Part shown: one piece after another, positions 1,625 to 64,000 of the stretch
How positions within the stretch are numbered: position 1 is the first letter of the stretch
How the letters are laid out: each line of letters begins with the position of its first letter
Assembly (NCBI GenBank): GCA_014879565.1
Contig: JACSRW010000038.1
Span: 1,759 to 65,758, forward strand
Reading direction: 5' to 3'
Length of the DNA: 64,000 nt
DNA from: Chitinophagaceae bacterium
GTDB lineage: Bacteria > Bacteroidota > Bacteroidia > Chitinophagales > Chitinophagaceae
Position numbers and translations under genes: made by a program
Notes under the pieces: generated by a model
What the model was told of the DNA's origin: nothing
Seen by the model: the letters and a program-made list of their open reading frames with translations, nothing else
The model's database searches: none

Positions 1625-4600
1625 TTAGAAGCCGAGGTTAATACCAAATGTCAGGGACTTGATTTGCGGAGCCGCGTAGAAGTCAGAACCCTGGTTGCGG
1701 TTACCGGCACGGTAGTCGGTATTCACTTCCGGATCCCATCCTTTGTACTTGGTAAAGGTGGCCAGGTTCACCCCGGTCAGGTATACACGGGCAGAACGGA
1801 TCTTCAGTTTGCTCAGCAGTTTGCTGTCGAGGTTATAGGCCAGGGTCAGGTTCTTCAGCCTTACATAGGAACCATTCTCCACATAACGGCTGGAAGCGCC
1901 GATCCCATTGCCATACCCGAGACGGAGCTGGGGCACATTGGTGATATCGCCGGGATTTTGCCAGCGATCCAGCTGGTCTTTGGTCTGGTTATCGAACCAG
2001 TCAAAGCTGGCAGACATAAAGCCACCGGCCCCGTTCATGATCTGGTTACCAAACACACCCTGGAAGAGTACCGACAGTTCAATTCCTTTATAGTTAAAGG
2101 TATTGTTCAGTCCGCCGATCCAGTCGGGGTTGGGATCACCAACCACGAAGTTGGCTGCATCATTATAATCGTTGGTGGTTGTTTTTCCGTCGGCAAGGTA
2201 ATAGAGGGCGTCTCCGTTATCGGGATCCGCGCCGGCAAATTTGGGACCATAGAACACCCCGATGGCTTCGCCAACGATCAGGGAGTTCAGGTAACGGCCG
2301 TCATTACCCGGGATCAGGGTCTGATCACCGTCAAGTTTGGTTACCTTGTTTCTGTTCTTAGCAATGTTAAAGCTGGAATTCCATTTGAAATCACGGCTGT
2401 TCACGTTTACGGAGTTCAGGACAAATTCAAACCCTTTATTCTGCATGGAACCGATATTCACCGTTTGGGTGGTGAAACCGGATGTACCGGGAACGGGAAC
2501 ATTGTAAATCAGGTCGCGGGTATTGCGTACGTAGTAGTCAATTTCACCCGTCAGGCGGTTGCTGAAGAAGCCGAAGTCAATACCGATATCGGTTTGTTCG
2601 GATTTCTCCCATTTCAGCGCGGGGTTAGCCAGCTGTGTCGGGATCAGACCGGAGGCGTTATTGTATTTGGAGGCACCCCAGAGACCCAGCTGAGCGAAGT
2701 CGCCAAAGCCGGCATCATTTCCGGTAAGACCAAAGCTTCCGCGCAGTTTCAGGAAACTGAGCCAGTTTACATTGCTGAGGAAGTTTTCTTCCGTGAGAAT
2801 CCATCCTGCAGAAGCAGCCGGGAAGAACCCGTATTTATTGTCTTTACCAAAGCGGGAAGAACCATCCATACGGCCGCTGAGCGAGAACAGGTATTTGTTC
2901 ATCAGCTTGTAGTTGGCCCGGGCAAAATAAGAAAGGATAGCCGATTCAGATGTGGAGGTAGAACCACCGGTGATACGGCCGGCGCTGGCCAGTTTCTTCA
3001 GGGCGTTCACGGGGAAATCTTCACCGGACACAAAAGAAAGGTCAGTCTGGAAACTCTGGAAAGACATACCGGCTGTCGCGTCAATATCATGATTGCCGAA
3101 TGCTTTTGTGAAGTTCAGGTAGTTGTTGGTATTGTAGTTAAAGCGGCGGAACCAGGTGGCTTCCCCATAACCATTGGTAGACTGACCAATGATGGTGCGG
3201 TTACCATAGAAGCGGTCGTCGCTCTGGCTTTGAATATCCACCCCGAATTCAGATTTGAATACCAGGTTGCGGTTGAATTTATAATTGAAGTAGAGGCCGC
3301 CGATATTACGGAATACGGTGGACTGGTAACGGGAATCCTCTGTTTCAATCAGGGGGTTGTAATAGGTGGTAGTGGGACGGTCATACAGGTTGCCGTTCTG
3401 ATCCCGTACAGGTGTGATGGGCGCCAGGGCTACAATCTGCATGGGGGTATAAAACTCATTGTCATCCGCTACACGATTGGCCAGGGTGCGGGCCACGCTG
3501 ATATTAAAGCCGAGTTTCACCCGGTTGCTGGCTTCATGATCCAGGTTGAATCGGCTGGAAAGACGCTGGAAATTGTTCAGGAAGAGAATACCCTCCTGGT
3601 CATTGAAACCCCCGCTGATAAAGAACCGGGTTTTGTCGGTACCACCGGAAGCGCTTACATCCACCAGTTTGGTTGTGGCATCCTGGTTAAAGGCGAGTTT
3701 TTCCCAGTTGGTATTGGTTTCAAGGTTACGCCAGTTGGAATAACCGGAATAACGGGTCAGCCTGTTTTCAGCAAACTGCAGCCAGGAACCGGCATACTGG
3801 GCCGGATCCAGCGGATCAATCCCTTCAATATTATCACTGTTAATAGCCGCTTCACGCAAAAGGTCAACATATTCTTTGGCATCCAGGAAACCGCGGTAAC
3901 CTGTGGGTTTGTTGGTACCATACTGGAAGTTTACATTCAGCTGGGTTTTACCGGCCCGGCCTTTTTTGGTGGTGATCAGCACCACCCCGTTGGCAGCACG
4001 GGAACCATAGATGGCCGCAGCGGAAGCATCTTTAAGGATATCGAAGGTTTCAATATCATTGAAGTTGATATCAGCCAGGGAGTTACCGGAGTTGGGGTCG
4101 CCATTGATCGGCACGCCGTCAACCACATACAAGGGCGCATTGGAAGCACTCAGTGAACCGGCTCCACGGATACGCACTTTAATCCCTTCTCCCACTTTAC
4201 CGTTCTGGGATTCCACAAATACCCCTGCGGCACGGCCCTGAAGGGCCTGGTTAAAGTTGGCAACGGGTGTATTGGCCACTTCAGAACCTTTAACACGGGC
4301 AATATTACCGGTCAGATCCTTTTTAATCTTGGTACCATAACCCACTACGATCACTTCATCCATACTCTGGGAATCGCCGGCTTTCAGGGAAACGGCAATG
4401 GGGCCTCCGGTGATGGTCATTTCCACGGATTCAAAACCGATGGCCGAAAACACCAGGACTTTAACGCTTTCATTTACGGTGAGGGTGAAAGTACCATCTG
4501 CCGCTGTGGCGGTACCGGTACGGGAGTTCTTTGCAGTGACAGACACGTTTGACAGCGGAGCGCCGCTGGCATCAGTAACCCTTCCGGTCACCTGTTTGGT

Positions 4601-62131: not shown

Positions 62132-62489
62132 TGGCCGGCTATGGCAGATCTGCCATATTCTGTTAACTCAGACAAAATTGATACAAGTCAGTAGCTTCAC
62201 ATTCCAATTTTATTTACATTTAATCATTAAACCGCGTCCTGAAAATTGTGTGTATTCCCACCTTTTTAAGGCCGGTTGTATAAAGGATACCGGTATTACC
62301 ACTCAGCAGACAATCTTTTCGGTATCAATCAGTCAGAAAAAATAATTGTGACTGAGGTGCACGAAGTGCATCAGGTTAAGATCCTGATAGGGGAGAAAAA
62401 CACCTGTAATTCGCCGGGAAAAAAGCGATGGTTGCTGAGGAAATACCCTTTTACATTTTTTAGGGACGGATTAATTTTTCCCCTAAAAA

Positions 62490-63680
62490 ATGAAAACGGT
62501 GACGCTGCAGTTTCTTCTTCACCGGGGAAGGAATTGCATAGGGATACGGTTTGAAAAATCGGAGCCGCTGATTTCAGCCTTGCGGCGGGGTACGGATGCC
62601 CGCTGGAGCCGGACACACGGATGCTGGTACACGGATGCCTCGCCGGAGCAGCTGGAAAAGATAAGAAAGGTTTTTGCGGGGATAGCGGAACTGGAAGAAA
62701 AGGATTTACCTCAAAGCGGTTCCTGGCCATTGCAGCCCCCTCCGTCCGCTGATATCCGTTATTTACACCGGGAACCTGTGAAAAAAGCGGTTCCTCCCCC
62801 GCAAATACATCCGGTAAACCGGCATGTGTTGCCCGCGTTACGCCAGGAGCTGGTGCTGCGTGGTTACAGTCCTTCCACGGTAAAGACCTATACAAATGAA
62901 GTGAGCATTTACCTGGTGGCGCTGAAGCATTTTGCCGCTGATGCGTTTACGCCGCAGCGCATCCGGGATTACCTGCAATACTGTCTGGAGAAGCTTAAGT
63001 TATCGGAGAATACGCTGCACAGCCGGATCAACGCGCTGAAGTTTTATTATGAGAAGGTGCTGAAGCGGGAGAAATTTTTCTGGGATATTCCGCGGCCGCA
63101 GAAGCCTTTGCAGTTGCCCCGTTTGCTGAATGAGGAGGAGCTCGCGCGTTTGTTCAATGCGCTGGTGAACAAGAAGCACAAGGCCATGCTGTTCACCGCC
63201 TACAGTGCCGGTTTGCGGGTAAGTGAGGTGATCAGTCTGCAGTTGGCGGATATTGACAGCCGGCGGATGCAGATCCATGTACGGCATGCCAAGGGCAAGA
63301 AGGACCGCTTTGTGAATCTGAGTCCGGTATTGCTGGATATATTGCGGTCCTATCTCAGTCAGGTGAAACCGGCGCCGAAGGTTTATTTGTTTGAATCAGA
63401 GCAGACCGGGACGGCCTATCCCGCGCGGACGGCGCAGCAGATATTCACCAATGCCAAGCGTAAGGCGGGGATACAGAAGGATGTAGGGATACACAGTTTA
63501 CGGCACAGTTTTGCCACGCATTTATTAGACAAGGGCACGGACATCCGGTACATCAAGGATTTGCTGGGCCATTTCAATATTAAGACCACGGAGCGATACC
63601 TGCATGTAAGCAAGCGGCAGCTGGTAAATATTATCAGTCCTTTTGATGATTTATGGAAAAACTCCAACCTCGACTGGTAA
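62490..63680 (+). CDS. Tyrosine recombinase, integron-integrase-like (SAM-like N-domain, no IntI insertion)
   Basis: LRVSE, KGKKDR, HSLRHSFATH, LGH and TTERY catalytic set; LRGYSPST..TY SAM-like domain. Confidence 0.95.
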   Translation: MKTVTLQFLLHRGRNCIGIRFEKSEPLISALRRGTDARWSRTHGCWYTDASPEQLEKIRKVFAGIAELEEKDLPQSGSWPLQPPPSADIRYLHREPVKKAVPPPQIHPVNRHVLPALRQELVLRGYSPSTVKTYTNEVSIYLVALKHFAADAFTPQRIRDYLQYCLEKLKLSENTLHSRINALKFYYEKVLKREKFFWDIPRPQKPLQLPRLLNEEELARLFNALVNKKHKAMLFTAYSAGLRVSEVISLQLADIDSRRMQIHVRHAKGKKDRFVNLSPVLLDILRSYLSQVKPAPKVYLFESEQTGTAYPARTAQQIFTNAKRKAGIQKDVGIHSLRHSFATHLLDKGTDIRYIKDLLGHFNIKTTERYLHVSKRQLVNIISPFDDLWKNSNLDW

Positions 63681-63699
63681 ATGTCGGATCTGATTGTCC

Positions 63700-63813
63700 T
63701 AACGGCAATACAAAAACCATAACGCACAATTCAGTAATTTACAACAGCTTTACTTTTTTAACCGGCGCCTAATTGCGCAAATAAAAGCGTTGCCTGCAAG
63801 TTTATTGGGCAAC
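63700..63813 (+). other. Candidate att-like recombination site downstream of the integrase
   Basis: GC/codon-style break; GCGTTGCCTGCAA with GTT at 63789-63791; short imperfect inverted repeats on both sides. Confidence 0.4.
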
Positions 63814-63868
63814 CGTATTCTAATCAAAATTCCCAGACACCAATTTTTTCAAACCAAAACTACTTGAC

Positions 63869-64000
63869 ATGAAAAATTACCAATGCAAAAAATGTAAGAC
63901 GACAATTCAAAACAATTCTTCACCAAGCAGTTTTAATTGTCCAGGCGGTGGTATGCACTCATGGACAGACTTAGGTGAAGTTGGTGCAAACAATTATCAA
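63869..64000 (+). CDS. Small Cys/His-motif protein, probably repetitive (partial; absent from the ORF track)
   Basis: Hand translation MKNYQCKKCKTTIQNNSSPSSFNCPGGGMHSWTDLGEVGANNYQ, open at the window edge; AT-rich. Confidence 0.7.
   Translation, partial: MKNYQCKKCKTTIQNNSSPSSFNCPGGGMHSWTDLGEVGANNYQ

Follow-up and report, generated by a model that had tools for sequence, protein, structure and literature searches.

Integrons are the textbook system for gene capture and shuffling, including that of resistance and defence genes. The closest described relatives of the locus reported here are the sedentary chromosomal integrons, such as the Vibrio cholerae superintegron, in which a tyrosine recombinase lies by an attI site, cassettes are inserted at G|TT, and each cassette ends in an imperfect palindrome (attC) with R''/L''/L'/R' boxes and AAC/GTT, whose structure is kept over its sequence. 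Their cassettes can number in the tens, the open reading frames (ORFs) all point the same way and mostly have no known function, and a shared chromosomal site holds varying content. Classical attC sites are 57-141 nucleotides (nts) long, and the integrase gene intI of classical integrons is divergent from the cassettes, whereas Treponema and some other groups have 'inverted' integrons, in which it is co-oriented with them. Another described group, the pdif modules of Acinetobacter plasmids and the integrative mobile elements exploiting Xer (IMEX), consists of discrete gene modules bounded by recombination sites for Xer-family enzymes; these sites are 28 bp long and dif-like, are used by host XerC/XerD, and come without a dedicated adjacent integrase, attI, long hairpins or tandem co-oriented arrays. 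Published surveys rely on the IntI-specific domain, considered 'necessary for integron-mediated recombination', both to define IntI and to detect it (10.1101/2022.02.06.479319; PMC8138268). They mention reverse-oriented IntIs of Spirochaetota (10.1101/2022.02.06.479319) and list hardly any complete integron from Bacteroidetes, one being that of Salinibacter (PMC9024848).

Here we describe a locus at the right end of a 64,000-nt window of DNA from a member of the Chitinophagaceae (Bacteroidota), positions 1759-65758 of contig C21 (JACSRW010000038.1) of the focal genome, G000; the contig runs just 1,079 nts past the window end. Judged from its sequence, the locus is very probably an integron-like cassette-capture platform with a Xer-type integrase. 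It resembles the sedentary chromosomal integrons in the respects listed above, and the pdif modules and IMEX in having gene modules between recombination sites for Xer-family enzymes, while differing from the latter two in site and enzyme as just described. Unlike the integrases of sedentary chromosomal integrons, the focal integrase lacks the IntI-specific domain, scores below the cut-offs of the integron-integrase hidden Markov models and carries an extra N-terminal domain of ~70 aa with a linker. The sites of the focal type are longer, 188-203 nts, with R boxes of up to ~15 bp, and the integrase gene is co-oriented with the cassettes. A preliminary description of this DNA had set the locus apart from classical integrons on two grounds; the missing patch still separates them, but a co-oriented integrase is not unique, being shared with the Treponema-type integrons, which among sedentary chromosomal integrons come especially close to the focal platform.

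The integrase gene (62490..63680, + strand) is a complete ORF encoding a Xer/IntI-like tyrosine recombinase of 396 aa. Pfam matches to Phage_integrase (PF00589, 1e-34) and to the SAM_4 core-binding domain (7e-13) agree with the complete recombinase and SAM-like N-domain of the preliminary description. The catalytic R-K-H-R-H-Y set is complete, and all six residues (R243, K268, H335, R338, H361 and Y370) are invariant in 41 homologs. When the protein was aligned to VchIntIA (IntI4, PDB 2A3V), residues 114-293 corresponded to 6-185 and residues 316-386 to 248-318, with 22 aa in place of the 62-aa IntI-specific region of VchIntIA, indicating that the domain is absent, as had been proposed. Scores lie between the models for archaeal XerA (XerA_Arch, NF040815; 197.7 bits versus a cut-off of 220), integron integrase (TIGR02249; 180.4 versus 265, in a two-stretch match that skips the IntI-specific region) and XerC/XerD (170.4 versus 335 and 164.3 versus 330), with NF011946 at 115.8 versus 435, and no NCBIfam family cut-off is reached. 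The discriminating profile of IntegronFinder is the domain around patch III, which the focal integrase lacks, and definitions of that type would exclude it. The platform looks integron-like in its working, yet is without the domain that defines an integron integrase. Public annotations call members of this family merely 'tyrosine-type recombinase/integrase' or 'XerD', with some plasmid homologs labeled 'site-specific tyrosine recombinase/integron integrase' by the Prokaryotic Genome Annotation Pipeline (PGAP).

The AlphaFold model of the integrase has a mean predicted local distance difference test (pLDDT) value of 78.6 and consists of four parts, namely an N-terminal alpha/beta domain, a disordered linker, the core-binding domain and the catalytic domain. 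Its best fold matches are XerA 5HXY, VchIntIA 2A3V and XerA 4A8E. XerA-type recombinases (4A8E, 5HXY; NF040815) are the best sequence and fold match for the core-binding and catalytic domains and likewise have no IntI insertion, but the focal protein differs from them in its score, in the extra N-terminal domain, in its patchy distribution and in its association with cassette arrays, where theirs is with a single dif site. The N-terminal domain (62490..62702, +; aa 1-71, pLDDT ~90) has a beta-beta-alpha-beta-beta-alpha-beta topology in the model and is followed by the Pro-rich disordered linker (62703-62819, +; aa 72-110). A Pfam search with this domain returned no family even at E = 10, and of the integrase homologs only those from Bacteroidota have it; among the 41 homologs, H11 and W46 never vary and W39 and C45 hardly ever do.

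The gain or loss of a cassette at the focal locus is directly indicated by a natural pair of occupied and empty sites. Contigs from the public samples SRR14787579 and SRR14787578 match the focal backbone over murA, GNAT, integrase and attI with 97.2% nt identity (99% aa identity for the integrase) and depart from the focal sequence a few bases past GTT. They read AAATAAAAGC|GTTGGCTGCTATGCC, with attI joined directly to the DNA that follows the focal hairpin, whereas the focal genome reads AAATAAAAGC|GTTGCCTGCAAG ... CCCTGGCC|GTTGGCTGCTATGCC, with 1,223 nts between the junctions. The boundaries of this indel lie exactly at the G|TT of attI and at that of the hairpin R' box, and two genes plus the hairpin are gained or lost. 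An exact 1,223-nt indel at G|TT is what insertion or excision between attI and attC would produce.

The crossover G|TT of the focal genome is at 63789-63791, 109 nts past the integrase stop codon and inside GCGTTGCCTGCAA (63787-63799), the site that the preliminary description had flagged where the DNA turns AT-rich; the GC content indeed falls from ~0.52 to ~0.36 directly past the integrase gene. The attI-like region (63681..63791, +) extends from the stop codon to this crossover, and its layout is conserved in five congeneric genomes (G000, G019, G006, G015 and G022), with the sequence diverging right after GTT. Across congeners, TAATTGCATAAATTTACGT|GTT is found ~105-110 nts past the stop codon. 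The region also contains a palindrome, ATTGTC-CTAAC-GGCAAT (63693..63709, +), which is near-identical in the five genomes (ATTGTCCTAACGACAAT); the congener form, ATTGTC-CTAAC-GACAAT, likewise lies soon after the stop codon. From its sequence, this palindrome is a candidate accessory protein-binding site.

Cassette 1 is an AT-rich segment of 1,223 nts that begins at the crossover and continues past the window end (63790..64000, +, on to C21 66770; 2801-4023 of locus L001). The crossover GTT and the cassette-start box GTTGCCTGCAAGTTT (63789..63803, +) form one arm of a 15-nt inverted repeat, I10. The start box is the inverted complement, at 14/15 positions (93%), of the end box AAACCTGCAGGCAAC (L001 3827-3841), which lies 1,012 nts further on, just past the window end, and the pair brackets both AT-rich ORFs of the cassette. 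The 195-nt attC-like hairpin (+; L001 3835-4029, C21 66582-66776) is an imperfect palindrome that reads ...GCAGGCAAC-ATT-GGGTTTGCTGCTATGCTGG ... CCAGCACAGCAGCAAGCCC-TGGCC-GTTGGCTGC. Inverted repeats that bracket a segment beside a tyrosine recombinase are a common arrangement in Bacteroidota, and the 15-nt repeats could on that pattern be the sites at which the neighbouring recombinase inverts a phase-variable segment. We consider this barely credible, since the natural variant is presence or absence rather than inversion, and the same boxes surround every unit of long tandem arrays, all in one orientation.

Through the G|TT crossover of integrons, the start of a cassette comes to complement the R'' box of that same cassette instead of the adjoining site. 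When we compared starts and ends in 110 cassettes of four arrays, the start of a cassette and its own end were complementary at 8.6/12 positions, compared with 4.8/12 for mismatched cassette pairs and ~5/12 for the two flanks of one site. No cassette reached 12/12, and in the examples read by eye the mismatch was at position 10-11 from the G of GTT.

The fold of the sites is conserved as well. Eight elements of ~195 nts form the same stem despite differing stem sequences, and RNAalifold, applied to the alignment of these eight, gave 16 consensus pairs, 10 of which have compensatory double changes. On 121 sites from three large arrays, 93.7% of cells are paired, versus 79.4% in shuffles and 27-47% with slid partners, and double-change cells number 230 where 104 are expected. 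The anatomy was drawn from 107 unique sites (188-203 nts): the 5' half comprises R'' (nnnnAAC), a 3-nt spacer (A-T-n), L'' (GGGTTTGGCGCA.A.TGGCGGC) and a variable centre of ~110 nts, and the 3' half L' (GCCGCCA.C.AGCGCCAAGCCC), a 5-nt spacer and R' (GTTnnnn). Some irregularities are conserved: stem position 4 is a T.G wobble, 12 bp of stem are followed by an A.C mismatch, and the spacers differ in length (3 nts versus 5 nts). They make the two strands of the site structurally different, as in classical attC. The hairpins matched no known RNA family in Rfam. A simple scanner for AAC-stem...stem-GTT was dropped because it was far less sensitive than a covariance model of the site and barely above a reversed-sequence null; the covariance model, R1, was used for the genome scans below.

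In congeners, arrays of 8 to >60 co-oriented cassettes stand behind the same integrase and attI. In G019, the backbone locus of the focal genome recurs (GT4, T9SS protein, DUF4290, murA and GNAT, with proteins 67-92% identical; T9SS, type IX secretion system) together with an integrase 68-70% identical to the focal one, while the focal cassette genes are absent. Its 8 sites are conserved elements of ~195 nts between ORFs, and each ORF is bracketed by its own GTTxxxx.../...xxxxAAC repeat. In G110, a full-length integrase homolog (49% identity) directly heads an array of >60 sites, and an independent metagenome contig encodes an integrase 67% identical to the focal one together with at least 12 co-oriented sites. 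The repeated AAC...GTT palindromic spacers between co-oriented ORFs, and the variable gene content at a conserved platform, that the preliminary description had anticipated are thus both present, the latter in the differing content of G000 and G019 as well as in the 97%-identical contigs that differ by exactly one cassette. Each of the outcomes that it had named as refuting was looked for, and none was observed.

A further possibility is an integrated mobile island of the prophage, integrative and conjugative element (ICE) or integrative and mobilizable element (IME) type, with the AT-rich DNA as cargo and the hairpin incidental. An AT-rich, foreign-looking segment right behind an integrase would fit such an island, as would the integrase homologs on plasmids and the patchy occurrence of the integrase in the genus. 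At E <= 1e-40 it is present in 13 of the 24 other genomes, in some of them more than once, and it is not a lineage-wide housekeeping gene. However, the indel removes just the 1,223-nt cassette and leaves the integrase in place, the integrase occupies one and the same backbone position in G000 and G019 with different content downstream, and up to >60 units follow it in congeners. In addition, no phage, conjugation or mobilization genes were found at the focal platform and no tRNA in 40000-64000 (24 kb searched), in line with the preliminary description, which had reported none upstream and had named a prophage or ICE as the refuting alternative. An island of this type is therefore very improbable.

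Placement and orientation of the sites also favor an integron-like platform. Of 100 other genomes of the genus, 72 have R1 sites, spread over several contigs each; its small-genome members have none. All 121 sites of the three large arrays (G094, G110 and G092) are on one strand, and the cassette ORFs are mostly on that strand too. The surroundings of the gene in 80 loci of the integrase family were examined to a distance of up to 8 kb either way; the 39 R1 matches were without exception downstream of the gene, with none upstream, and 37 of them were co-oriented with it. In every locus examined the integrase is co-oriented with the cassettes, and no divergent intI was seen. If the ~195-nt elements were instead self-spreading repeats, like repetitive extragenic palindromes (REP) or miniature inverted-repeat transposable elements (MITE), gathering beside an unrelated Xer-like gene, their abundance in the genus on several contigs each, the arrays without an intact integrase nearby and the many short ORF-less units would be accounted for. 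Such repeats would not, however, make the start of each segment complementary to its own end, yield a clean indel at the attI G|TT, or keep to the downstream side and to one strand, and we regard this origin as remote.

It is also conceivable that the cassettes are real but are moved by a housekeeping Xer or another enzyme, as in dif modules, with the adjacent integrase otherwise employed. The focal genome encodes two further Xer-like paralogs, on contig C2, the adjacent enzyme has no IntI domain, and arrays without an intact integrase exist. Still, the sites lie directly downstream of the focal integrase family in many independent loci, attI is conserved at a fixed distance from the integrase stop codon, and the sites are 195-nt hairpins rather than 28-bp dif-like sequences, which makes this explanation unlikely.

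Several observations weigh against an integron-like platform driven by the focal integrase. The IntI domain, absent here, is called essential for attC recombination in the literature (PMC8138268; 10.1101/2022.02.06.479319). The array of G094 is accompanied by a truncated integrase remnant only, and that of G092 has no integrase within 10 kb. The occupied and empty sites were compared between 97%-identical contigs, which are not isolates of one strain, and their right flank is just 90% identical. The complementarity statistics given above treat related and duplicated cassettes as independent. The focal gene pair occurs elsewhere at 85-88% aa identity without R1-type sites, and the focal cassette was not seen in a second array. 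Finally, the covariance-model scan of the focal genome gave one attC-like site only, and contig C21 stops 68 nts past the hairpin. Consequently, the 'array start' of the preliminary description holds for the genus but not demonstrably for the focal strain, for which a single cassette and site are assembled. Its term 'sedentary' likewise applies in part: G000 and G019 share the murA-GNAT locus, whereas other congeners have the platform at different loci and distant homologs are on Bacteroidota plasmids.

In the integron-like platform that we favor, the integrase would catalyze recombination between attI (G|TT at 63789-63791) and the folded attC-like hairpins of ~195 nts, in the order R''(nnnnAAC), L'' stem, ~110-nt variable centre, L' stem and R'(GTTnnnn), with one hairpin closing each mobile cassette. 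The focal attI would hold a single 1,223-nt cassette, and arrays of 8 to >60 would have accumulated in related species. Association and covariation point to the focal integrase as the responsible enzyme and to sites that would react as folded single strands; because the IntI domain is absent, we infer the competence of the integrase on hairpin sites from its association with them only. The N-terminal domain or the attI palindrome may compensate for the missing domain. No cassette promoter was identified, and the cassettes may be transcribed by read-through from the integrase side.

We lean towards the view that Bacteroidota hold a large undescribed integron lineage, with Xer-like integrases, hairpins of ~130-200 nts and no IntI-specific domain, perhaps with the N-terminal domain or the attI palindrome in its place. 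A literature search, with most subscription journals outside its reach, turned up no account of Bacteroidota cassette arrays served by integrases without the insertion. If this view is true, the domain by which integrons are now defined and detected is not required by the mechanism, and integron surveys have overlooked the cassette reservoir of a whole phylum. The requirement is called into question by the precise gain or loss of a cassette at G|TT, by the covarying hairpins and by the arrays of >60 cassettes. Consisting of a single integrase, attI and cassette, and with a naturally empty counterpart, the focal locus offers a compact case for experiments.

The two genes of the focal cassette lie on the + strand. 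The first, the short ORF noted in the preliminary description, starts at 63869 (63869..64000 in the window) and, read to its end in the contig, encodes 74 aa (L001 2880-3104) with a tandem-duplicated CxxC...C zinc ribbon that reflects an internal 117-nt duplication; its matches to zinc-ribbon families are weak. The second, past the window, encodes a 231-aa uracil-DNA-glycosylase-like protein (L001 3118-3813), and a few homologs have weak matches to the uracil-DNA-glycosylase superfamily. Searches of both proteins with PADLOC, NCBIfam and Pfam gave no solid function. Across Bacteroidota, these two genes, the double zinc-ribbon one and its 231-aa partner, are conserved as a pair with >400 homologs (L062 382-1313; L063 713-1408). 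In L063, the 231-aa gene follows a different tyrosine recombinase and has a Druantia DruA gene nearby. The GC content of the cassette is ~0.36, versus 0.50 for the genome.

Some arrays contain further kinds of units. Three ORF-less units of ~215-230 nts, 91% identical, are present in G019 (L024; G019:C2 11356-11572, 12513-12729 and 13617-13829), and the G110:C6 array has about a dozen ORF-less units each of ~135 nts and ~237 nts. Some 130-nt units score weakly with the site model, and a second, shorter site class may be interleaved in the arrays. For the ~50-kb array of G094 (G094:C1 ~650-706 kb; L046-L049), the integrase remnant, which covers aa 1-191 at 45% identity, lies ~6 kb upstream of the first detected site. 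On a plasmid of Chryseobacterium sp. SNU WT5 (L061; NZ_CP041688.1, 8974-19014), an integrase homolog of 37% identity has co-oriented small genes behind it, and between these a ~280-nt element with an AAC-stem...stem-GTT hairpin of ~140 nts is present in four copies. This array is interrupted by an IS110 and a group II intron.

The left neighbours of the integrase, GT4, a T9SS-tail protein, DUF4290, murA and GNAT, are of ordinary kinds, as had been stated. A hairpin with 19-nt arms surrounds the integrase start codon (62447..62499, +; inverted repeat I3), with a predicted RNA fold of -26.7 kcal/mol (z = -3.5). It is shared with the contigs 97% identical in backbone, and its sequence conservation does not extend to G019 or to the other homologous loci; a role as translational brake in the focal strain is conceivable but speculative. 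A palindromic 23-nt motif, ATGGCAGATCTGCCATATT, has one copy just upstream of the integrase (window ~62141-62163, C21 63899) and another ~220 nts inside contig C14 (C14 318). It was considered as att-like direct repeats flanking the whole platform and rejected because the genome has it at ~8 loci; the motif is one of low copy number and not platform-specific.

Many assemblies end ~20-220 nts past the integrase stop codon, which fits strain heterogeneity or repeats there. The segment that follows the focal hairpin (GTTGGCTGCTATGCC..., C21 66770-66837) matches the beginning of C14 (1-95), read as its reverse complement, at 94% identity, and the three independent assemblies of G000, SRR14787578 and SRR14787579 all end ~68-95 nts into it. 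In searches for a bridge between the two contigs, an exact-pattern scan of the genome contigs for this segment found nothing, BLAST against the collected loci returned the focal lineage only, and in other assemblies with the C14 protein the contigs end before bridging C21 and C14. By their sequence, the end of C21 and the start of C14 probably belong to one long imperfect palindrome next to attI, each supplying an arm (at least 2 x 95 nts in all), and the match suggests that C14 is the chromosomal continuation of C21. C14 430-560 contains GGTTGAGG-type repeats, and related short tandem repeats are common to many contig ends of G000 (e.g. C6 left; C9, C18, C19, C25 and C28 right), where they are probably a general cause of assembly breaks.

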